From Candidatus Uhrbacteria bacterium (GTDB lineage Bacteria > Patescibacteriota > Patescibacteriia > UBA9934): DNA of 64,000 nt. Of the stretch, positions 4,148 through 58,054 are shown in pieces. The notes under the pieces are model-generated. The model saw only the letters and a program-made list of their open reading frames with translations. It had not been told where the DNA came from and searched no databases. The first letter of the stretch is position 1. Each line of letters starts with the position of its first letter. The position numbers were made by a program, and so were the translations under genes. The stretch is from NCBI GenBank assembly GCA_018664485.1, contig JABJOE010000009.1, positions 76,635-140,634 on the forward strand, given 5' to 3'.

Positions 4148-4174
4148 AACCCCCGAGATCGCTCGGTGGGTTTA
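4148..4174 (-). terminator. GC-rich hairpin (AAACCCCCGAG-ATCG-CTCGGTGGGTTT) after the last cassette of the array, before alaS
   Basis: Perfect inverted repeat seen in the sequence. The same CCCGAG...CTCGGG hairpin type follows every cassette ORF. Confidence 0.4.
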
Positions 4175-4237
4175 CAGACCTATATTAGAAAGCGGGCCTG
4201 CTAATAACGCTTTTTAGAAAGACTCCTAAAACTCAGA

Positions 4238-4669
4238 CTATGCCCAAAGCTTATTCAAGTCATTGCCGCTGATGAACTCAGGCATGTGAACACCTCTTTT
4301 TGTCTGACGAGAAGCCCTTGCCTGTCTACGAATCAACTGGCAAAGCTCCATTGCCCTGGGCACTTCGTTAGCGTCCACGTGTGCCCCTGAACTCATACGG
4401 CATGTAACACCGCCATCACCGTTCTCCATGTACTTCAACACACCTGGATGACGAACCATCTTAACGCCCAGATCCAGAACCTGCTGATAGGTGATGTCTC
4501 CAAAACCCAGCGCATGTGCCGAAACGACTGTCTGCCTACGACTCGTAGGAAGAGCGCCGTGCCCCAGAAGGGCTGTAGGACGAATTACTGTGACCGATGA
4601 ACCGTCTGCGAACCAAAAGGTCCTCATTCCGAGCTCATCCCTCTGATAAAGCGGCTGATTTTCAGCCAT
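4238..4669 (-). CDS. hypothetical protein, GC-rich cassette A (143 aa)
   Basis: ORF 4238..4762 trimmed to MAENQPLYQ..., which follows the conserved leader repeat directly. The N-terminal extension in the ORF track is just translation of the repeat. No recognisable family. Confidence 0.5.
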   Translation of the reverse strand: MAENQPLYQRDELGMRTFWFADGSSVTVIRPTALLGHGALPTSRRQTVVSAHALGFGDITYQQVLDLGVKMVRHPGVLKYMENGDGGVTCRMSSGAHVDANEVPRAMELCQLIRRQARASRQTKRGVHMPEFISGNDLNKLWA

Positions 4670-4729
4670 ATCGTCTCTTCTGAACCGTAGTTTTGTCCGG
4701 CTCGCAGCGCATCCCTGGGGAGATCCCAG
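4670..4729 (-). repeat. conserved cassette leader, copy A (about 48 nt plus covarying 5-bp hairpin)
   Basis: Gene-strand consensus CAGGGATGCGCTGCGAGCCGGACAAAACTACGGTTCAGAAGTAAAGAGGA then ATG. Four copies at 4670, 5162, 5601 and 6171. Confidence 0.85.
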
Positions 4730-4786
4730 AGTGTACGCATCTAAGCCCCCGAGTGATCGCACTCGGGAGACGCAGTATCTGTGGAC

Positions 4787-5161
4787 CTAAAGGCAAACCG
4801 GATAATGAATCACTCCTGATTGATCAGAAGCTACAGACTGCTCAGCGAGCATTCTCTCAACCTGCCTAACCTTGTCCATATCGCGAAGCACTTGTGTTAT
4901 TCCTTTGTCATCAACCCATTCAAACGCCACTCTGTAGCGACCCTTGAAGTGCTGCCGGAATATCTTCACCCCTCGGACTTCACGAGTTCCAGGAAGGAAC
5001 CAAGTCATAAGGAGTGACAAGAGCCACGGCCACTTCACGAAAAAGTTCGTGAGTCTCGTCTGCTCTCCAACAAGCCTTCTTCCACTGGAGAACCAGATTT
5101 CCAGCTCACCCTGTCCGTTCACTGCCGTGTGAACGGGAACCATTTCCTTGATAGATTTCAT
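4787..5161 (-). CDS. hypothetical protein, GC-rich cassette B (124 aa)
   Basis: The ATG sits immediately after the leader repeat, which ends in an AGAGGA Shine-Dalgarno sequence. No recognisable family. Confidence 0.5.
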   Translation of the reverse strand: MKSIKEMVPVHTAVNGQGELEIWFSSGRRLVGEQTRLTNFFVKWPWLLSLLMTWFLPGTREVRGVKIFRQHFKGRYRVAFEWVDDKGITQVLRDMDKVRQVERMLAEQSVASDQSGVIHYPVCL

Positions 5162-5225
5162 TCCTCTTTACTTCTGAACCGTAGTTTTGTCCGGCTCGCA
5201 GCGCCTCTTTGAAACCAATCAAAGA
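5162..5225 (-). repeat. conserved cassette leader, copy B
   Basis: Near-identical to copy A. The preceding hairpin TTTGA-ttggt-TCAAA covaries with CTGGG-atctc-CCCAG of copy A. Confidence 0.85.
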
Positions 5226-5276
5226 AGAGCGATAGAGCCCCAAAGCGTCACGCGCTTTGGGAAGGTCTGGACCTTT

Positions 5277-5600
5277 TTAGATCCGATCAATTCTTGCCAT
5301 GACACAAATACACCTAATAGTATCACCTAGTTCAAAGATGAAGCGCAGCGTTACCTGTCTAGCAGCTTGAATACAGGTGTAGACCAAAATGTTCATGGCA
5401 CCATCCTCACTGTAATGGCTTCCTGCACGGTACCAAAGTGGACTATCTCTAAGGATTTCGTCCAACTCTGCGAACCAGTCACTATTTCGAGACACCATCA
5501 CTCGATAATGAGACTCGTGAAGAAAGTCTCTCGGAATGAAATTCGGATTAGGCTCGAAGGTTCCATAAGGAACTGGAACTATGACTATAGAGCTACTCAT
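5277..5600 (-). CDS. hypothetical protein, GC-rich cassette C (107 aa)
   Basis: The ATG sits immediately after the leader repeat. No recognisable family. Confidence 0.45.
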   Translation of the reverse strand: MSSSIVIVPVPYGTFEPNPNFIPRDFLHESHYRVMVSRNSDWFAELDEILRDSPLWYRAGSHYSEDGAMNILVYTCIQAARQVTLRFIFELGDTIRCICVMARIDRI

Positions 5601-5661
5601 GTCTTTTTACAGAACCGTGGTTATTTCCGGCTCGCAGCGCATCCCTGAAACGAATTTTCAG
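5601..5661 (-). repeat. conserved cassette leader, copy C
   Basis: The GGGATGCGCTGCGAGCCGG core is conserved. The hairpin CTGAAA-attcg-TTTCAG covaries with the other copies. Confidence 0.8.
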
Positions 5662-5753
5662 AGCTGTGCAGTTGAGCCACCGAGAGAAAATCTCTCGAGT
5701 GACACGAACTTTTGTTTATGCGGTGTTCGTACGTAGAACCGCTAGATATGAAC

Positions 5754-6170
5754 TTATTTTACTGGCGGTCGAAGGAAGCGCTGATCAACCATTTTTTTGT
5801 ACTTTTCAGTTGACAGTTCTTCGTATGTGAGCTGAGTCGGGTAAACAATCCCCTCACAGATACTAGCAGCCTCCTGCTGTCCAGCAATCCGCAACAGGAG
5901 CTCTCTTCGATCGTCTGCGAGTGTGACGTGGTAGCCACCTCTCACGTCCAACCAATAGACAGTGTCACCTTCCTCATCATCAAAGTAAGCCAGAATTCCT
6001 GCAAAGAATCCGTACTCGACGTCATTGAGGACATTGTCAGGATCCTTCACCTTTCCGTACCTGTACTCCGTTCCTTTTGGGGCCCCGCAGCACCTTCCGT
6101 CCAGTGCGAAGATCCATTCTTTTCCGGTGATGATGACCTTGATCAGGTCACTAGATGTGCTATCGGGCAT
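5754..6170 (-). CDS. hypothetical protein, GC-rich cassette D (138 aa)
   Basis: ORF 5754..6293 trimmed to MPDSTSSDLIK..., which follows the leader repeat (…GTAAAGAG ATG). No recognisable family. Confidence 0.5.
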   Translation of the reverse strand: MPDSTSSDLIKVIITGKEWIFALDGRCCGAPKGTEYRYGKVKDPDNVLNDVEYGFFAGILAYFDDEEGDTVYWLDVRGGYHVTLADDRRELLLRIAGQQEAASICEGIVYPTQLTYEELSTEKYKKMVDQRFLRPPVK

Positions 6171-6233
6171 CTCTTTACTTCTGAACCGTGGTAGAACCGG
6201 CTCGCAACGCATCTCTAGAAAAGAACTTCCTAG
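6171..6233 (-). repeat. conserved cassette leader, copy D (first in transcription order)
   Basis: …GATGCGTTGCGAGCCGGTTCTACCACGGTTCAGAAGTAAAGAG ATG. Confidence 0.8.
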
Positions 6234-6366
6234 CTTATGCGTATTTAGGCCCCCGAGATAACTCGGATGTAAAAAAACTGGCAACCACAACAATTAAGTC
6301 GTAATCCCAGTAATCTGATCGCTGGTTCAGAGATATATTGTCTGACAATTCTTTACCTCTGAGACA

Positions 6367-6395
6367 AGGATAGCATAAAATCGCACTTTTGTCAA
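6367..6395 (-). promoter_or_regulatory. putative promoter of the cassette array (TTGACA, 17 nt, TGcTATCCT)
   Basis: Gene-strand ACTTGACAAAAGTGCGATTTTATGCTATCCT. About 24 nt are identical, spacer included, to the promoter at 18625 and highly similar to the one at 29905. Confidence 0.45.
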
Positions 6396-6427
6396 GTACG
6401 ACCGAACAAATAAATCGCTTATCTTAG

Positions 6428-8035
6428 CTAATTTTGTTCCAAAATTGCCTCTTCGGGGTGATTTTTACGCATAATCTTTCGGCGAAGTCCGCTAACTATA
6501 TTGAGTAGCTCCTCGCTTTTGAACAGATAAGCAATTGATACATAAACAAGAAGTCCAGCGCCACCTGCAACCAACAATTGAGCGAAAACGCCAACAAATG
6601 TATCGAGTGTAATCCACTCAACTACAACACCCTTAACAATCTGAGTAACGACCCCACAGCATGCCGCAGCAGCCACAAAGACCAATAGAGACTTTGCAAT
6701 GTGCAACTCGCCCAAGCTCCCCATCTTCACACGTAACCACCCCCATAGGAAGACGAACTGAATGACAACAGCAATCGAATATGCAGCGCCTAATCCGATT
6801 ACACCAAATTCTTGGGTTAATAACACCGCGGCAAATCCATGAAATACAGCCGCGAACGTTCCTATTATAAACGGAGCAACTGTCTGCCCACGTGAAAAGT
6901 ATACTCGCACCAATAAGTAAATTAGCGCCTGGATAGTCAGCGTCATAGCAAAGAGCCCCAATGTGTTCGCGGTAAGAATTGTAGCCTCCCAGTCGAATTG
7001 ACCAGCACCCACCACTAAACGGACAACCTGCGCACGAAGCATGATGAATAGAACTGTTGCAGGAACTAAAAAGAATAACATCTGCCTTGCCGTGGATGAG
7101 ATCGTTTGTACAAACGCTTTCTTCTTTTTATCATTCGCCAACTCGCACAATGTCGGATACGCAGCTATAGCGTACGACACCCCAATGATCCCAACTGCAA
7201 AAAAGTTCAAATTATATGCGAATTGCAAAACCGTTACTGACCCTACAGCTAACGTTGAAGCGATAGCAGTCATCAAAAAGATATTCACCTGCCCCACCGC
7301 AAGACCTAGGGTTCTCGGCATCATATGCTTAAGCGTATAGATAACGTCTTTGTCTTTGAGAACTAAACTAAATTTAAAACGATGACCAAGCGCCCTCGCC
7401 CCCATCCATTGCGTAAACATATGCAATGCGGCTCCGATAACAACACCCCAAGCCAGACCTATCGGCCACTCTTCCGTTGCAATCCATACAGCTCCAACGA
7501 TAATACCTACATTGTAAAAAATTGGAGCCAGCGAGTATATAAAGAACCGCTTAGCACCCTGTAGCACCGATCCGTAGATCATAGACACGGACAAAAGGAA
7601 CTGAGCTAAGAACATCACACGGGACATGTCAGCGACCATATCAAGCTTAGCCTGCGAGAATCCAGGGGCAACCATGGCGGCTAATGGATCGGCCGCAACC
7701 ATCATTATAAGCGTCACTACACCAAAACCGATAGCAACCAGTGTAAGCATGGTGTTTGTAAATTTCCACGCCTTCTTTATTCGTTTTTTGTGATAGTACT
7801 TTGTAAAAATCGGAATGAAACTAGCAGAAAGTGCTCCCACGACAATCATCTGAAACATCAAATCAGGAATCCGAAATGCTGCAAAATACACATCTAAGAC
7901 ATCAGAAGCTCCAAACAGTCCAGCCAAGATTCTATCGCGAACGAATCCTACAAGACGAGACAGAATCGAAAACAGTGCAACAATTGCTGCTGCACTTGTA
8001 ATCGTATTAGATTTTCCTGAGAGCCATGAAAACAT
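6428..8035 (-). CDS. murJ: lipid II flippase MurJ (MviN family)
   Basis: 535 aa polytopic membrane protein. The N-terminal VGFVRDRILAGLFGASDVLDVYFAAFRIPD is characteristic of MurJ. Confidence 0.85.
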   Translation of the reverse strand: MFSWLSGKSNTITSAAAIVALFSILSRLVGFVRDRILAGLFGASDVLDVYFAAFRIPDLMFQMIVVGALSASFIPIFTKYYHKKRIKKAWKFTNTMLTLVAIGFGVVTLIMMVAADPLAAMVAPGFSQAKLDMVADMSRVMFLAQFLLSVSMIYGSVLQGAKRFFIYSLAPIFYNVGIIVGAVWIATEEWPIGLAWGVVIGAALHMFTQWMGARALGHRFKFSLVLKDKDVIYTLKHMMPRTLGLAVGQVNIFLMTAIASTLAVGSVTVLQFAYNLNFFAVGIIGVSYAIAAYPTLCELANDKKKKAFVQTISSTARQMLFFLVPATVLFIMLRAQVVRLVVGAGQFDWEATILTANTLGLFAMTLTIQALIYLLVRVYFSRGQTVAPFIIGTFAAVFHGFAAVLLTQEFGVIGLGAAYSIAVVIQFVFLWGWLRVKMGSLGELHIAKSLLVFVAAAACCGVVTQIVKGVVVEWITLDTFVGVFAQLLVAGGAGLLVYVSIAYLFKSEELLNIVSGLRRKIMRKNHPEEAILEQN

Positions 8036-29403: not shown

Positions 29404-29537
29404 AAAATTGACAAAGCCTTGTTTTGTATTAAAATTTGATCAAATTCCTGCGTCACATACCAGGTCGGTTTACGAAAGTGAACTAAGTAGGAAAATTTCA
29501 CCTCACCAAATGAAATCTATTGAAGCTGGAGGATACC

Positions 29538-29753
29538 ATGGCTCTGGATGACGTTTTGGCAAGAGAGATGGGTCGTGAACCTGCAGCCGGCCACCAAGGA
29601 CAGACACGCGCACCCACTGACCAATCAATCGGTAATGCGATGAGATTCGCTGCCGCATGTAGACGACTCTCAGCGAGAGCGAGGCACGGCCACCACAAGC
29701 GACTCCCACGACGCCAAACAGAACAAGAAACGCCCCATTGGCACATCGACTAG
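29538..29753 (+). CDS. hypothetical small basic protein, GC-rich tandem cassette 1 (71 aa, ends PHWHID)
   Basis: ATG 5 nt after a GGAGGA SD. The last 6 codons lie inside the 123-bp direct repeat. Confidence 0.45.
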   Translation: MALDDVLAREMGREPAAGHQGQTRAPTDQSIGNAMRFAAACRRLSARARHGHHKRLPRRQTEQETPHWHID

Positions 29754-29860
29754 CCCGCGTCACCATCTTGGCGTGAGGAGCACCCGTACGATCTGATCGT
29801 GCGGGTGCCTTGCTTTTTACATGTAAAAAAACCGCTCTACCCTCACAACAAAACTTTCTA
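29738..29860 (+). repeat. 123-bp direct repeat copy 1 (ORF 3' end + terminator + T/A palindrome)
   Basis: Near-identical to 30421..30543. Contains the hairpin GCACCCGTACGATC-tga-TCGTGCGGGTGC, then CTTGCTTTTTACATGTAAAAAAA. Confidence 0.9.
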
Positions 29861-29904
29861 CGCATACACAACCAAATTACGTATTTTTTTGCTACTCATA
29901 TACT

Positions 29905-29933
29905 TGACAAAAGACCTATTTTATGACAATATT
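29905..29933 (+). promoter_or_regulatory. promoter module ACTTGACAAAAGACCTATTTTATGACAATAT for cassette 2
   Basis: TTGACA, 17 nt, CAATAT. Homologous to the modules at 18625 and 6395. Confidence 0.5.
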
Positions 29934-30040
29934 TTATCCTAATTCCTGTGCTATATGCCAGGTCGGTTCACGAAAGTGAGCTCAGGAGGACCAGGTTTCC
30001 ATCCTTATCCAATGGGGACATCAGAGACAAGGAGGGCTAC

Positions 30041-30436
30041 ATGCCCGCAACCGGAGACAAGGACTACGTCCGCTATCTCGTCAGAACCAGTGGAGGAGTC
30101 AAACGATTCCGTGACTCACAGGATTCGCCTGATGGCGGCCGCGTTGAAGTCCCGTTCGAACTCAGCATCATGTCCTGGAATGGCAAGAGATGGGTCCACC
30201 CGCAGCCTACCAATAACTGGATCGTGATCATCGACGGCACGCATCGTGGCAATATCGCTGGAAGTGTTCTTCTTCGAGGTAAAATGCGTCGACGGCACCA
30301 TGACGCAGGTATCCGTAAAGAATACGACTTCAAGGGCATCCGGTTCTTCGGCCATAGCCCTCTTGTAGGAAGTGCTCTCGGATTCCTCAACGTCTGGGAT
30401 CACGGCACAAGCCCGCCCGCTTGGCACATCGACTAG
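30041..30436 (+). CDS. hypothetical protein, GC-rich tandem cassette 2 (131 aa, ends PPAWHID)
   Basis: ORF 29948..30436 trimmed to MPATGDKDY, 6 nt after an AAGGAGG SD. The C-terminal 6 codons are shared with cassette 1 through the direct repeat. Confidence 0.45.
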   Translation: MPATGDKDYVRYLVRTSGGVKRFRDSQDSPDGGRVEVPFELSIMSWNGKRWVHPQPTNNWIVIIDGTHRGNIAGSVLLRGKMRRRHHDAGIRKEYDFKGIRFFGHSPLVGSALGFLNVWDHGTSPPAWHID

Positions 30437-30543
30437 CCCGCGTCACCATCTTGGCGTGAGGAGCACCCGTACGATCTGATCGTGCGGGTGCCTTGCTTTT
30501 TACATGTAAAAAAACCGCTCTACCCACGCAACAAAACTTTCTA
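30421..30543 (+). repeat. 123-bp direct repeat copy 2
   Basis: See copy 1. Confidence 0.9.
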
Positions 30544-30668
30544 TATATACGCAACCGGGTTGCGTATTTTTTACTACCAACAACCCCAGGTCTTCTCGAC
30601 CCGGGGCTTTCGTATTCCTTCTCTTAAAACCTTCAGAATTGCGTTAGATCTGGCTGTGAAGCTTCGGT

Positions 30669-54207: not shown

Positions 54208-55818
54208 CTACATAAGGGAAGCTCCTGTCATTTCTGGTGGCTGCTCCAGCCCTAGTTGCGCCAATATAGTCGGAGCAACATCGGCAAGCATCCCAATCGG
54301 TGGCACCAATGACAAATCACCATTAGGTATATCACCAGATGGACCGGGCTGCCCCTCAAGCTCATTGCTTACAACCCAAAATGGAACCGGATTTGTACTG
54401 TGTTCTTTATCCATATCTCCGGTCTGTAAATTCTGAACCTCCTCGGCGTTACCGTGATCTGCAGTAATGAAAACTATTCCATCCTTTTTCAAAACAGCGT
54501 CGACAATTCTTCCGACAGATTCGTCTACAACCTCGACGGCCTTAATCGTGGCATCCAAATTTCCGGTATGCGCAACCATATCCGGATTAGCAAAGTTCAT
54601 AATGATCATGTCGTAGTTATCTGTCTTCAACTCCTTTAAAACACGATCCGTAATCTCTCTCGCTGACATTTCCGGCTGCTTATCATAAGACGCAACCTGA
54701 GGTGACGGAATAATTGCACGATCCTCATGCTCGAAAGGCTCCTCGCGTGTTCCGTTGAAGAAAAAAGTTACGTGAGCATACTTTTCCGTTTCAGCAATAT
54801 GCAGTTGCACTAAACCATTTTTTGAAACAACCTCGGATAATCCATTTTGGATAACCGACGGTGGATACGCTACATCAACCGGCAACCCCTTTTCATATTG
54901 AGCCATCGTAACGAATGTAACGTTCTCAATATAGGTTCGTTCAAACTTATCAAACGATGGAAGTACAAAAGCTTTTGTAATTTGTCGCGCACGGTCAGGT
55001 CGATAATTAAAGAAAATAACAGCATCTCCAGACTTCACCGTAGCCACAGGCTCACCCTTTTTGGTAACGACTGTCGGCGGAAATTCTTCATCGTACACCT
55101 CATTACCATACGAAGCCTTGATAGCCTCAAATACATCCTCAGTCATTGCTTGAGACTCCCCTTTTACAATTGCGTTATATGCTTTACCTGTTCGATCCCA
55201 ACGATTGTCACGATCCATCGCAAAATACCGACCAGAAAGTGTGGCAATTCTCCCAACTCCAATATCTTTAATCTTTTGATCCAACGCAGTTATAAAATCG
55301 ATCCCCGAATTATACAAAGTATCGCGACCATCCATGAACGCATGAATAGCCACATCTTTTATTCCATGTTTTTTGGCAAGATCAAGAAGAGCATGACAAT
55401 GAGCGTCGTATCCGTGAACTTTTCCAGCACTCACAATCCCCATTAAATGCAATGTCCCCCCTGTCTGTTTCACCTGACTCACAGCCTTCAGTAAAGCTTC
55501 ATTTTCAAAAAAACCACCGCCTTGAATATCCTGCTCAATACGCGGCATCGTTTGGTAGTACACGCGACCAGCACCGATCGTAAGGTGGCCAACTTCTGAA
55601 TTCCCCATCTCCCCCCAAAGCAAACCAACCGTCTCGCCCGAAGCACGAACTGTCATCGTTGGGTAACGCTGAATTAGCTTATCGAATGTAGGGGTTTTAG
55701 CGCGAGAAATAGCATTCCCCTCACCATCTGGTGCGGCGCCAAGACCATCTATCACCATCAACACCGCTGGTCGTGGTCGTTTATTTGTATTTGGTATAGG
55801 GGTAGGCAAATCAGACAT
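54208..55818 (-). CDS. gpmI: 2,3-bisphosphoglycerate-independent phosphoglycerate mutase
   Basis: VIDGLG...SEVGHL...; alkaline-phosphatase-superfamily metal ligands; about 535 aa. Confidence 0.85.
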   Translation of the reverse strand: MSDLPTPIPNTNKRPRPAVLMVIDGLGAAPDGEGNAISRAKTPTFDKLIQRYPTMTVRASGETVGLLWGEMGNSEVGHLTIGAGRVYYQTMPRIEQDIQGGGFFENEALLKAVSQVKQTGGTLHLMGIVSAGKVHGYDAHCHALLDLAKKHGIKDVAIHAFMDGRDTLYNSGIDFITALDQKIKDIGVGRIATLSGRYFAMDRDNRWDRTGKAYNAIVKGESQAMTEDVFEAIKASYGNEVYDEEFPPTVVTKKGEPVATVKSGDAVIFFNYRPDRARQITKAFVLPSFDKFERTYIENVTFVTMAQYEKGLPVDVAYPPSVIQNGLSEVVSKNGLVQLHIAETEKYAHVTFFFNGTREEPFEHEDRAIIPSPQVASYDKQPEMSAREITDRVLKELKTDNYDMIIMNFANPDMVAHTGNLDATIKAVEVVDESVGRIVDAVLKKDGIVFITADHGNAEEVQNLQTGDMDKEHSTNPVPFWVVSNELEGQPGPSGDIPNGDLSLVPPIGMLADVAPTILAQLGLEQPPEMTGASLM

Positions 55819-55986
55819 ATATAACATCAGTATACCACTTATTTGAAACTTACTTTCCCTGGCTATGACTACTCAAGTTTTTTATGTGTATACCTTGACG
55901 AAAGCATTAGACTATAATACTTTTCAAAAAGAATCTGAGCAGCATATTCACGCTGTCTGGAACCCTCACTCCAACAAAGAGTCACT

Positions 55987-56124
55987 ATGAGCCCTTTGGA
56001 AATCGGCTGCCTCCTTGCGATCATCGCCATCATGCAAATGTTTGGCAATGACAATGACTTCTCACACCAAGTAGGAACGAAAAAGAAGATGAACGCATTT
56101 CTCACCAACTCGCCCTCAATCTGA
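55987..56124 (+). CDS. possible small hydrophobic protein (45 aa), not in ORF track
   Basis: Manual translation gives MSPLEIGCLLAIIAIMQMFGNDNDFSHQVGTKKKMNAFLTNSPSI, with an AAAGAG SD-like sequence upstream. It ends inside the first trailer repeat. Confidence 0.25.
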   Translation: MSPLEIGCLLAIIAIMQMFGNDNDFSHQVGTKKKMNAFLTNSPSI

Positions 56125-56196
56125 GGGCATTTCCAGAGCAGATCAAAAGATGGTCAATTCTGGAAAATACAAAATCGCCTTAACAGCGTTTTTTGC
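56111..56196 (+). repeat. trailer repeat copy 1 (covarying hairpin plus TGGTCAATTCTG...AAAATCGCCTTAAC(A/G)GCG T-run)
   Basis: GCCCTCA-atc-TGAGGGC here against GCCCTT-tctc-AAGGGC in copy 2. About 45 nt of the downstream part are conserved. Confidence 0.6.
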
Positions 56197-56235
56197 TTTT
56201 ATATCGAAAGTAACCCAAAAACCGTTCACTGCAAC

Positions 56236-56264
56236 TTGACAAAAAGGCTAAAATCTGCTATTAT
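56236..56264 (+). promoter_or_regulatory. strong consensus promoter (TTGACA, 17 nt, TATTAT) for the candidate small RNA
   Basis: ACTTGACAAAAAGGCTAAAATCTGCTATTAT. Confidence 0.55.
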
Positions 56265-56270
56265 ACGCAT

Positions 56271-56410
56271 GTGTTAGAGAAGTAATCTAGTTACGATTAC
56301 TTCAAAGTATCTTCAAAACTCATGGGCCACTCGCCTCGCCCAAAAGTAGGCAAAAACATGAAATCATGTTCCCTTACGTTGACCCGTAAGATTTTGGACA
56401 TGAGTTTTTT
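56271..56410 (+). ncRNA. candidate small RNA of about 140 nt with three internal hairpins, a closing helix and a U7 tail
   Basis: GAAGTAATC/GATTACTTC 9-bp stem. CATG-aaat-CATG. CTTACG-ttgacc-CGTAAG. Closing CTCATG...CATGAG then TTTTTTT. No ORF of meaningful size. Confidence 0.4.
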
Positions 56411-56491
56411 TATAATCAGACTTTGGTACCTCGCGATGATACATAAACGTATTTCGCGCAGCAGGAGCTACACAACATAACAGTCTCGCTA

Positions 56492-56549
56492 CTTGCGGGC
56501 GGTCACATCAAGCACAGAAATCCTTCTGTTCTTGCCATGACCTTTGGAG
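56492..56549 (+). repeat. leader repeat copy 1 (…GGTCACATCAAGCACAGAAATCCTTCTG…GCCATGACCTTTGGAG)
   Basis: About 55 nt are shared with 57276..57335. It contains the CAGAA-atcc-TTCTG hairpin and ends in a GGAG SD. Confidence 0.7.
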
Positions 56550-56554
56550 ACCAA

Positions 56555-57229
56555 ATGTTCCTTATAGCCATTCTTCTGAACCTTCTTGGAAGCATCGCTG
56601 TCGCTTCTGATGACTGCAAACAAGTTGTCAGCGTTTACCACTACACGCTAGCTGAAGGAGTTGTCTTTCTGGCAGGAGAATCGAACAAAAAGATGGAGAT
56701 ATTCGACAACGAATTCTTCTGTGTTACAGGCGACACCTTCACGGCCAGCTACATGAAAAATGGTGAAACTCTAAAAAAATTCACCACCCCAATTGAAGCG
56801 GGAAATCACTACGTATACGAAGGTAGTATGCCCGACCATCCAGATGATGAGTATCTTGTGAAGATTCAACAGCCAACTCAAGAGAACCTCATCTTCCGTT
56901 TTGGAGACGACTGGAAAGCACAGACACTTACTCCGACTGAAAGTAAATGTGTAAAGCTGACCGCCAGAATAACATGCAGCGCAAATACAAACTCCTCACT
57001 TATCGTTGGTGACGAAGTTGTTGAGCAAGGCGACAACGTTGAGCTATGCATCAAACCTTTAAAGAGCATCATCCCCGTAGAAGTAGCAACACAAAATAAC
57101 GCTTGGTATGCAGACGAAGGTGATGAGTGGATCAGAAACTACGGAACCTACTTGTCAAAAGGAAACAACTGGGAATGGAACGCTAGCAGGAATTACTGCA
57201 CAGTAGACATATCCCAAACCAATCAGTAA
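56555..57229 (+). CDS. hypothetical secreted protein
   Basis: ORF 56537..57229 trimmed to MFLIAILLNLLGSIAVASDDC, after a GGAGA SD. Signal peptide; no family recognised. Confidence 0.5.
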   Translation: MFLIAILLNLLGSIAVASDDCKQVVSVYHYTLAEGVVFLAGESNKKMEIFDNEFFCVTGDTFTASYMKNGETLKKFTTPIEAGNHYVYEGSMPDHPDDEYLVKIQQPTQENLIFRFGDDWKAQTLTPTESKCVKLTARITCSANTNSSLIVGDEVVEQGDNVELCIKPLKSIIPVEVATQNNAWYADEGDEWIRNYGTYLSKGNNWEWNASRNYCTVDISQTNQ

Positions 57230-57275
57230 AAGTAAGGCACTTCAACCGCCATACATTCGACCCGCGGCACCTCGT

Positions 57276-57335
57276 TGCCTGCGGGGGTCACATCGAGTGC
57301 AGAAATCCTTCTGCTTTCGCCATGACCTTTGGAGG
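57276..57335 (+). repeat. leader repeat copy 2
   Basis: See copy 1. Confidence 0.7.
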
Positions 57336-57339
57336 ATTC

Positions 57340-57582
57340 ATGACCAAACAGCTAACCAAGACGCCACGAAATCTCACAATATTACTGATTTTATCCCTCA
57401 TTTCCAGCAGCGCATTTCTAGGGGTAGTTCTCAATAACTGGAAATCTGTATTCTTTGGACAGGAGTGGATACCGAGAACAACTTACCTATACGTAAGTAT
57501 AGGTTTATATAGCCTCAGTCTCATTCTCATTACCTTATCAATTATATCCATGTACTCGTGGATCAAAAAAAGTTACTCGTAA
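57340..57582 (+). CDS. hypothetical small two-TM membrane protein
   Basis: ORF 57322..57582 trimmed to MTKQLTK, after a GGAGGA SD. Confidence 0.45.
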   Translation: MTKQLTKTPRNLTILLILSLISSSAFLGVVLNNWKSVFFGQEWIPRTTYLYVSIGLYSLSLILITLSIISMYSWIKKSYS

Positions 57583-57605
57583 AGTAACAATATACTGAAC
57601 TCTTA

Positions 57606-57688
57606 CCCTTTCTCAAGGGCCTCACCAGAGAAGATCACTCAGTGGTCAATTCTGAGAAATAAAAAATCGCCTTAACGGCGCTTTTTTG
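57606..57688 (+). repeat. trailer repeat copy 2 with small terminator
   Basis: See copy 1. CGCC-ttaa-CGGCG then TTTTTT. Confidence 0.6.
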
Positions 57689-57733
57689 TTATTGCAAACT
57701 AGCTATTACTGGCCTGGTCGCGCTCGAATATAC

Positions 57734-58054
57734 CTATCGATTAACTGCAACGGCTGAATCTCCTCCCACCACATATTTAACTTCTTCCATCTCTACCAAT
57801 CCTAGCATCTGCATTCGTGTCGTTACGCTATCCACACTTTGCAATCGAGAAACTGTAAGCTTGAGCCGTTCGTTATCATGCTCCAGCGCAGAAATTCCAC
57901 GATCCAAATCGCGCATAGCGTATCCGGACGTTGCAGCTACATTAACTTGCCAAATATAGGAGAATCCAAGTACGACCGTCGTAATCAACAACGCGCGCAT
58001 CATCCAATTCCCTTGGCTAGTTAGATTCTTCAGTTTTGTGATGGGATTCATCAT
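57734..58054 (-). CDS. ftsL: FtsL-like cell division protein (start uncertain)
   Basis: Small bitopic protein with a TM helix, then a coiled-coil, directly downstream of rsmH in dcw order. Confidence 0.45.
   Translation of the reverse strand: MMNPITKLKNLTSQGNWMMRALLITTVVLGFSYIWQVNVAATSGYAMRDLDRGISALEHDNERLKLTVSRLQSVDSVTTRMQMLGLVEMEEVKYVVGGDSAVAVNR

Follow-up and report, generated by a model that had tools for sequence, protein, structure and literature searches.

A candidate lineage-specific transcription unit with repeated RNA elements around orphan genes between gpmI and ftsL of a Candidatus Uhrbacteria bacterium

Architecture of the locus

The stretch of 64,000 nucleotides (nt) of contig JABJOE010000009.1 analyzed here, called the window in the following, stems from an uncultured marine bacterium of the candidate phyla radiation (CPR), a Candidatus Uhrbacteria bacterium. 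Between its genes gpmI and ftsL lies a 1.9-kb locus in which two structured elements, a leader and a trailer, are each repeated around small orphan genes. The locus is a small operon placed between two housekeeping genes and reading against both. The interpretation preferred herein, to which about an even chance is given, is that of a lineage-specific accessory transcription unit whose RNA expression frame is conserved, whereas the open reading frames (ORFs) inside it change fast.

The left flank of the slot is formed by gpmI (54208–55827, minus strand), the gene of the cofactor-independent phosphoglycerate mutase, and the right flank by a ftsL-like gene of 105 amino acids (aa; 57734–58051, minus strand), which is the last gene of the series mraZ–rsmH–ftsL. 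Both flanks are conserved. The gpmI gene is 68–74% identical to the gene directly after ftsL in relatives, an identical product shows matches to the Pfam families Metalloenzyme and iPGM_N, and a comparison of RsmH, FtsL, MraZ, and GpmI leads to Patescibacteria near Candidatus Uhrbacteria. All features between gpmI and ftsL are laid out on the plus strand, namely—in sequential order—a possible short gene (ORF45), trailer 1, a promoter with a candidate small RNA, leader 1, ORF224, leader 2, ORF80, and trailer 2. A repeat search of the locus returned exactly two families, the leader and the trailer, and no inverted repeats of at least 9 nt were found within it. The G+C content (GC) of the region is 0.426 compared with 0.443 for the window and thus near that of the genome; the first-pass annotation had described the module as AT-rich, which applies only against GC-rich arrays elsewhere in the window.

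The leader element

Leader 1 (56485–56549, plus strand) consists of a small hairpin P0 (56485–56499), a three-helix hairpin (56501–56542), and the Shine–Dalgarno (SD) sequence TTTGGAG (56543–56549). Leader 2 (57271–57334, plus strand) is built in the same way from P0 (57271–57285), the three-helix hairpin (57286–57327), and the SD TTTGGAG(G) (57328–57334). With the leader model R1, the two copies score 102 and 99 bits, respectively. They differ by eight substitutions and one indel over 65 aligned columns, which corresponds to an identity of 87% (52–65 nt are delimited by repeat search), and both end in TTTGGAG at 5 nt ahead of the ATG of ORF224 (56555) or ORF80 (57340). In shuffled sequences, 0.00 matches to the leader pattern are expected. 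Hence, the repeated leader with an SD that had been noted before both genes is substantiated.

The large hairpin comprises 15 base pairs (bp) in its three helices and stops one base before the SD. Six substitutions distinguish its two copies, five of which lie in helices—with every pair being kept—and one in a bulge. The helix changes are two A–U to G–C double (compensatory) changes and one change from G–C to G–U, and because of this G·U pair the leader structure is strand-specific. Random placement of six transitions gives the same pair-keeping outcome at P about 0.006 under a neutral model. The three differences in P0, as read from the alignment, are structure-neutral too. A role of the leader hairpin as an attenuator, as considered in the first-pass annotation, does not hold: since only UUU follows the hairpin instead of a U tract, it is not a transcriptional attenuator or terminator, and it is the upstream small RNA that bears a terminator.

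The 3′ strand of the leader hairpin (56537–56554 and 57322–57339) contains an ATG (ATGACCTTTGGAG) in frame with ORF224 and ORF80, which would extend the N termini by MTFGDQ- or MTFGGF-. The gene callers took the downstream ATG, and the leader-internal one is probably unused because it lacks an SD of its own and is positioned within helix P1.

The trailer element

The trailer is found in two copies of about 90 nt on the plus strand. Trailer 1 (56108–56196) is made up of the hairpins H1 (56112–56128) and H2 (56133–56163) and a weak terminator of A tract, stem, and T tract (56171–56194); trailer 2 (57600–57690) contains H1 (57606–57619), H2 (57626–57654), and a terminator (57661–57687). The core of 71–72 nt (56124–56195 versus 57616–57688) is about 80% identical between the copies. 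As for the leader, the expectation for the trailer pattern in shuffles is 0.00, so the repeated trailer first described from the sequence stands as well. The covariance models R2 and R3, the latter built with both trailer copies of the relative L047 included, assign 107 and 92 bits to trailer 1 and 111 and 96 bits to trailer 2.

Three hairpins, namely H1, H2, and the terminator, are predicted for each trailer, with z-scores of -4.6 and -3.7. H1 is variable in sequence. It had been called covarying; a hairpin is indeed present in both copies, but its pairing requires a register shift of 1 nt. H2 is formed by two stems around a 2x2 internal loop, and the third hairpin by a short G+C stem between A/U runs. 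The terminator of trailer 2 reads A6-CGCC-UUAAC-GGCG-C-U6, has a bidirectional appearance, and lies 44 nt from the ftsL stop codon. Its CGCC/GGCG stem is extended by A6/U6, whereas trailer 1 has only CGC/GCG. Both terminators were missed by the consensus terminator scan, which requires at least five pairs including at least three G–C pairs, because their G+C stems are only 3–4 bp long and flanked by A/U runs.

H2 could be compared across five trailer copies from three genomes. Herein, 91% of cells are paired, as opposed to 30–45% in controls with the partner slid. Covariation occurs at two pairs of the inner stem (U·G/C–G/U–A and A–U/U–A), and six G·U pairs are counted versus one C·A. Reverse-strand matches of the trailer models remain at noise level, with true matches on one strand only, and the spacing of the inner arms differs by 1 nt among copies. 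The strand bias, the G·U pairs, and the shift in arm spacing favor a sense-strand RNA structure over a double-stranded recombinase site.

On the minus strand, a promoter-like sequence (57616–57589, TTGAGA-16-TATATT, 10/12) lies inside H1 of trailer 2 and points toward the 3′ end of ORF80. It is a weak consensus match, of which 3.3 are expected per region, and trailer 1 has no counterpart.

Promoter and candidate small RNA

The best promoter match of the region is located between trailer 1 and leader 1. This sigma-70 promoter (56236–56264, plus strand; TTGACA-17-TATTAT with TG extension, 11/12 matches) is expected to start transcription near 56271. It is followed by a candidate small RNA or structured leader RNA (56271–56411, plus strand) with a 5′ hairpin (56279–56303), a core (56324–56356, GGGCCACUCGCCUCGCCCAAAAGUAGGCAAAAA), and a terminator hairpin (56364–56403) with a closing stem of 8–10 bp and a U7 tract (56405–56411). 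The RNA of about 140 nt has a fold of -40 kcal/mol and a z-score of -4.0. Its conserved core of 33 nt contains two small hairpins, the loops of which are complementary to each other. Despite the closing stem and U7, the terminator is unlisted by the consensus scan. With a predicted promoter, about 140 structured nt, and a stem followed by U7, the small-RNA gene proposed earlier between trailer 1 and leader 1 gains in substance.

The promoter scan found no promoter-like site between U7 and ORF224. The ORF224 and ORF80 cistrons would, therefore, depend on read-through, and the 5′ RNA would be the only element placed to control entry into them. Another promoter-like box, TTGACG-12 nt-TATAAT (55895–55920, plus strand), lies upstream of ORF45; it was read from the sequence and is unlisted by the promoter scan. 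Its spacing is too short for standard sigma-70, so that this sequence may be a decayed version of the promoter box common in the clade.

An extended promoter box, CTTGACAAAAGTGC.ATTTTATGCTAT(T/A)AT, occurs near-verbatim at window positions 6395 (minus strand), 18622, 29901, and 56233, and in relatives at about 9505 (L039), about 930 (L047), and about 1630 (L049). It looks like the strong-promoter consensus of the clade. Since it recurs at unrelated loci and in relatives, promoter likeness alone is not evidence of module homology.

No match to Rfam 15 was obtained for the window at gathering thresholds. With E up to 10, only terminator-like chance matches (17–21 bits) appeared on the trailers and none on the leaders or the small RNA, and an Rfam search of the loci of relatives returned tRNAs only.

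The protein genes

ORF45 (55987–56124, plus strand) may encode a 45-aa peptide with a single hydrophobic segment at the N terminus. Its coding nature is doubtful, with a codon score of -0.10 that is not the best of six frames and without family matches. The earlier observation of a hydrophobic peptide ending in trailer 1 is borne out in that the stop codon of ORF45 lies within H1.

ORF224 (56555–57229, plus strand) has a hydrophobic N terminus, which is signal-peptide-like by eye, contains eight Cys residues, and is mostly β in a low-confidence model; the AlphaFold model (predicted local distance difference test, 37) is unusable. The codon score of 0.077 is the best of six frames and below that of native genes (at least 0.18), which supports a coding but atypical gene. 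Among 5.8 billion clusters, ORF224 matched only itself. An exhaustive HMMER search of 1.84 billion representatives returned itself and one Muc_B2 repeat protein, which was rejected as a homologue: its E-value adds up over 22 identical repeats that score about 27 bits apiece, and the match is thus an artifact.

ORF80 (57340–57582, plus strand) is 80 aa long, with two hydrophobic segments and GGAGG at 5 nt upstream of its ATG. Its codon score is ambiguous, and it is called as a gene on one public contig (L004). In the 5.8 billion clusters, it likewise has only a self-match. Hence, the homologue search suggested earlier led for both proteins to nothing but themselves. No match above noise was obtained for the locus ORFs in Pfam, PHROGs, PADLOC, or NCBIfam. 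ORF224 and ORF80 are unrelated to each other, as had been stated (BLASTP E = 4.5), and, therefore, not a duplicated gene pair. Neither a vestigial leader before ORF45 nor a vestigial trailer after ORF224 was found.

The slot in related genomes

Ordered by the identity of their FtsL to that of the window, the relatives differ in the state of the slot. At 46–58% (L013, L052/L053, and L054), gpmI follows ftsL on the same strand 24–27 nt apart, an arrangement that would represent the ancestral junction. At 57–68% (L014, L045/46, and L048), the spacer measures 150–180 nt. A glyoxalase/Ble-like gene on the opposite strand is found at 69% (L042 and L051), opposite-strand small ORFs with two trailer copies at 70% (L047), and an opposite-strand module with the small-RNA core and a trailer at 78% (L039, equal to L040 and L041). 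Opposite-strand accessory genes at the ftsL–gpmI junction are, thus, carried by a subclade in which FtsL reaches an identity of at least about 69% to that of the window.

The closest relative found, L039, carries on its module strand the same promoter box, the RNA core (GGGCUACUUGCCUCGCCCUGAAGUAGGCAGAAA), and a long terminator-type hairpin. Compared with the window, the terminator stem exhibits two compensatory pairs, and the core is the most conserved part of the RNA. Riboswitch-type attenuators as a kind are marked by a conserved structured aptamer upstream of a terminator in the 5′ untranslated region of the regulated genes, with covariation across many species; what is seen here is a core of 33 nt with a covarying terminator hairpin before unrelated genes in two genomes, a number too small for such an assignment. 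After the RNA, L039 continues with three ORFs (141, 55, and 61 aa) and then a trailer directly next to ftsL, oriented as in the window. This trailer reaches 51.9 bits (E = 6e-8) with a model made from the window copies only, and the 61-aa ORF ends inside H1, as ORF45 does.

In L047, the trailers score 28.3 and 13.6 bits with R2. Its module comprises a tandem of at least two small ORFs that each end with a trailer, after which come a promoter, an ORF of 31 aa, and a plain terminator. The trailers of L039 and L047 have equivalent stem/U-tract ends, and L042 keeps the 3′ part of a trailer beside gpmI. The nine small ORFs of the three trailer-bearing modules show no mutual resemblance, and no DNA homology between the modules was found beyond promoter, core, and trailers. 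Module GC follows host GC in the three genomes. A search of the relatives with the leader model R1 was negative. The logic of conserved leader, variable ORF, and structured trailer, as put forward in the first-pass annotation, holds for the locus and is strengthened by two relatives, which carry the trailer, and one of them also the small RNA, around different ORFs.

The slot accepts ordinary accessory genes too, since L042 (8365–9246) and L051 (396–575) hold a gene resembling glyoxalase/bleomycin-resistance proteins in it. The L042 slot also contains a 150-aa protein with a DGIHR motif, which is ParB/sulfiredoxin-like by eye. In L049 (1416–2119), the ftsL–gpmI spacer is 700 nt long, with a promoter box toward gpmI and, after the box, about 400 nt that are G+C-rich and hairpin-rich and contain neither a called gene nor an Rfam match; these 400 nt could be a long structured 5′ untranslated region (UTR) or an uncatalogued RNA. 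A gene resembling a Y1 (IS200/IS605-type) transposase lies between uvrA and uvrC in L045 (4171–4686) and L046 (3988–4686). This weak Pfam match of one relative lies at a distance of about 3.5 kb from its slot, and nothing equivalent was seen near the window slot.

Copy number and mobility

Further copies of leader or trailer were absent from the 64 kb, both with up to three mismatches and with the models R1, R2, and R3 (filters off), and from the relatives outside the slot (214–270 kb). In the metagenome collection of the Joint Genome Institute (JGI), the leader pattern returned only this locus, and a pattern of the leader helix skeleton found nothing in 185,579 GTDB species genomes or in viral contigs. 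The trailer pattern had no match in viral contigs, and blastn of the 1.9-kb locus against phage records had none either. The dispersed cassette family envisaged in the first-pass annotation is, thus, not seen: leader and trailer are confined to one locus of the window. A simple local duplication with diverged ORFs, which had been named there as the opposing case, agrees with this confinement within the window but not with the two ORFs, which are no diverged duplicates given their BLASTP E of 4.5.

Public contigs with flanking or internal genes are 100% identical over the locus and have the same arrangement; no polymorphism in presence, absence, or order was found among 24 of them, the sole apparent indel being a scaffolding run of N. 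The public scaffold L002 shows GAG and a gap of 10 N in trailer 1, at about 1747 (window 56136), and the ends of several short public contigs fall into trailer 1, leader 1, or trailer 2. These gaps and ends in repeats are most likely low-coverage or repeat-related assembly breaks and not biological variants. No recombinase was found within about 9 kb, where ten flanking ORFs belong to housekeeping Pfam families or to none, and syntenic relatives are annotated likewise.

Interpretation and alternative explanations

The best reading of these data is that selection would preserve the non-coding RNA frame and not the proteins. A strong sigma-70 promoter would start the RNA of about 140 nt, which may attenuate the genes downstream, be released as a small RNA, or do both. 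Read-through transcripts would carry two cistrons, each with a 65-nt leader element acting as a common cis-acting operator (of processing, stability, or translation), and both cistrons would respond together. By analogy with intercistronic processing or stability hairpins, the leader may set processed 5′ ends or bind a common factor. The trailer would form the 3′ end of the mRNA and stabilize it; trailer 2 would, moreover, insulate the unit from the convergent mraZ–rsmH–ftsL operon and trailer 1 from the divergent gpmI promoter region. The orphan secreted or membrane ORFs would be replaced, or evolve beyond recognition, between relatives. ORF45 with trailer 1 looks like a second, older or decaying unit, given the short-spaced promoter-like box, the absent codon support, and the weak terminator.

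Several points weigh against this interpretation. The leader is known from two copies in one genome, which makes for a weak covariation test, and the shuffle control of the covariation tool is uninformative with two sequences (145/500). The SD is sequestered differently in the minimum-free-energy folds of the two leaders, meaning that SD masking is not conserved. The small-RNA comparison likewise comprises two sequences. Short terminator stems, which the consensus scan left unlisted, are found in the trailers, and that of trailer 1 has only three G–C pairs. Transcript ends, processing, and read-through past the U7 site, as well as the roles given to the leader hairpin and H2, are all inferred from the sequence. 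Lastly, the model searches for copies cover 64 kb of the source genome; contigs of same-sample metagenomes are leader-free elsewhere, but these assemblies are fragmentary and were scanned for the leader only.

The repeats could also be neutral relics, left by old local segmental duplications in non-essential intergenic DNA, with ORFs that are chance or young frames. Copies limited to one 1.9-kb locus would fit this explanation, as would the degenerate terminator of trailer 1, the missing ORF homologues, the weak or absent codon support of ORF45 and ORF80, and the score of ORF224 under those of native genes. It is nevertheless unlikely: the substitutions in the leader hairpin keep every pair and include two double changes, and the edges of homology coincide with structural edges, which are the SD in the leader and the U tract in the trailer. 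Furthermore, trailer and small-RNA core are recognizable at an FtsL identity of 70–78% with unalignable DNA in between, which is unexpected for neutral DNA, and a 224-codon frame with GGAG at ideal spacing is improbable at 44% GC (by our own estimate, about 2e-6 per start). Even less credit is given to recombination cassettes, in which the trailers, and especially the H2 palindrome, would be DNA sites of a recombinase encoded elsewhere—comparable to attC or Xer/pdif boundaries—and the slot an integration platform. H2 would herein be an imperfect palindrome with two arms of 11–12 nt and a center of 3–5 nt. Such cassettes would account for slot cargo that differs from lineage to lineage and, like that of chromosomal integrons, is made up of small orphan ORFs, for the tandem of trailer-terminated small ORFs (two in the window and two in L047), for direct trailer copies bracketing the main unit, and for the partial trailer on the gpmI side of L042. 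However, the RYYYAAC/GTTRRRY core pair and the single hairpin of 57–141 nt are missing, H2 being a 29–31-nt element between separate hairpins; the six G·U versus one C·A and the one-strand model matches point to sense-strand RNA; and the arm spacing of H2 varies by 1 nt between copies. There is also no recombinase within about 9 kb, no presence/absence or order polymorphism in the 24 public contigs, no difference between module and host GC, and no copy elsewhere, the collection-wide JGI and GTDB scans having used the leader only.

A variant of the preferred interpretation, rated as rather unlikely, would turn the terminated 5′ RNA into a trans- or cis-acting riboregulator that gates translation of the leader-bearing cistrons. 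Just as doubtful is the contact proposed for it, a pairing of the conserved loop GCCCAAAAGUAGGCAA with the P0 loops (CUACUU...GGGC in leader 1 and UUGCCU...GGGU in leader 2); possibly, toxic small membrane proteins would be restrained in this way, as in type I toxin–antitoxin systems. When the 19-nt core was tested against all 24-nt plus-strand windows of the 64 kb, P0 of leader 2 was the second best partner (-18.8 kcal/mol, top 0.03%) and P0 of leader 1 the tenth (-16.3, top 0.17%), with loop sequences that differ between the leaders. Moreover, the core sits in predicted hairpin loops and exceeds the rest of the RNA in conservation, and ORF45 and ORF80 are small and hydrophobic. Against this, the test was post hoc, the complementarity amounts to only 4+6 bp broken by internal loops, and for L039, in which the core is present and the leader is not, the test gave no outstanding target before the ORFs. 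Whole-RNA duplexes of the small RNA or the trailers with the leaders are no better than shuffles, and neither antisense overlap nor an inverted repeat of at least 9 nt exists in the locus. A bolder proposal, to which a low probability is attached, would make the ftsL–gpmI slot of this subclade an expression dock dedicated to new genes: the frame (promoter, GCCCNNAAGUAGGCA-core small RNA, and H2 trailer with terminator) would persist while orphan ORFs of secreted or membrane proteins are swapped or born inside it, and in the genome of the window the small RNA would control the cistrons via the P0 loops of a copy-and-paste leader, which would amount to riboregulated cassette expression without a known recombinase.

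Other loci of the window

Two further loci of the window contain repeated elements. On the minus strand at 4150–6440, four small ORFs of unrelated appearance (about 107–179 aa) lie behind a single promoter (about 6395), each after the same leader of about 45 nt (GCGYTGCGAGCCGG-N9-CGGTTC...AAGAG), which has a 6-bp hairpin just before the SD. The leader copies are located near 6213, 5640, 5215, and 4720. A loose W-F/I-x-x-x-G motif close to the N terminus is common to three of the proteins, which may thus be very diverged paralogues. On the plus strand at 29440–30575 (GC about 0.52), two tandem units each comprise the promoter box of the clade, a conserved 50-nt leader (AATTCCTG...CCAGGTCGGTTYACGAAAGTGA...AGGA), an unrelated ORF ending in the same ...WHID motif, and a 159-nt trailer that is 92% identical and contains two terminator-like hairpins; no Rfam match was obtained. 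The flanking genes, named by eye, are cobalamin adenosyltransferase-like and ribonucleotide reductase-like. The notion of more than one module family, thus, stands as far as different repeated leaders and trailers exist at other loci of the window, but not with respect to a spread of the family at ftsL–gpmI.

Significance

To our knowledge, few regulatory RNAs are known in CPR/Patescibacteria, and a literature search on this subject found nothing relevant. The novelty of the locus would consist of three uncatalogued RNA motifs and a hot spot of gene turnover in a poorly known phylum. The candidate structured motifs, none of which has an Rfam counterpart, are the 5′ core with its terminator, the three-helix hairpin before the SD, and H2 at the 3′ end; two of the three are conserved across genomes. 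The non-coding elements herein outlast the protein genes that they flank. As a recurrent hot spot for orphan secreted and membrane proteins in reduced genomes, the locus bears on how episymbionts vary their surface or host-interaction repertoire. Annotation of the repeats as a mobile cassette family should be avoided.

Comparison with known systems

Several known classes were considered and rejected. Integron attC sites are defined by RYYYAAC and GTTRRRY at the ends of one imperfect 57–141-nt hairpin with extrahelical bases, whereas the trailers are three hairpins with an H2 of 29–31 nt that ends in CCAGAG...TTCTGG and a GCCTTAAC-like word without a GTTRRRY partner. An integron was also rejected on account of its integrase: beside the neighbors gpmI and ftsL, ten ORFs over about 9 kb include no tyrosine recombinase, which is absent by definition in clusters of attC sites lacking integron-integrases (CALINs). 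Repetitive extragenic palindromes, bacterial interspersed mosaic elements, and miniature inverted-repeat transposable elements, which are scattered in many copies over unrelated intergenic sites of one genome, do not apply with two copies per element in 64 kb (filters off) and a leader found nowhere else in JGI or GTDB. A type I toxin–antitoxin pair, with a small hydrophobic toxin and an antisense or partly complementary RNA overlapping its mRNA, is not indicated in spite of the hydrophobic ORF45 and ORF80, as the small RNA is co-directional, inverted repeats of at least 9 nt are absent, and complementarity to the leaders is limited to short loops. Membership in the riboswitches, small RNAs, or ribozymes of Rfam 15 was dismissed for want of a match at gathering thresholds.

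Integron cassettes and CALINs nonetheless share with the locus a fixed position, ORFs that are small and orphan, structured repeats on the 3′ side of these, and relative-specific cargo. Unlike them, the trailers have no R″/R′ core sites and no single long attC hairpin but hold terminators and a strand-specific G·U structure; the locus has its own promoter and 5′ RNA, no integrase is nearby, and no mobility was seen. The likeness to pdif-type modules is limited to their logic of fixed slot, orphan cargo, and 3′ structured repeat. With phage morons, the locus has in common a self-contained promoter–gene–terminator insert on the opposite strand between genes that are adjacent in relatives, and genes without assigned function. 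In contrast to morons, it does not lie in a prophage, shows no similarity to phage or viral DNA or proteins, and has a host-like composition.

Terminated 5′ leaders may double as small RNAs, as is the case for riboswitch-derived ones, and 3′-UTR-derived small RNAs exist as well. No known aptamer class matches the 5′ RNA of the locus, which is found in two sequences; common to both, however, are a promoter-proximal structured RNA with an intrinsic terminator before genes and a structured 3′ end sharing the mRNA terminator. A last comparison is offered by intercistronic hairpins. The RNase III sites in the early region of phage T7 and the stem-loops within operons act in processing and differential stability of polycistronic mRNAs. 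The ftsL–gpmI locus differs from these systems in that it has two copies only, lies in a CPR chromosome, is known from sequence alone, and lacks similarity to Rfam. It resembles them in a hairpin of about two helical turns with internal loops that is repeated before successive, unrelated cistrons of one transcript, with the similarity from copy to copy restricted to the element itself.

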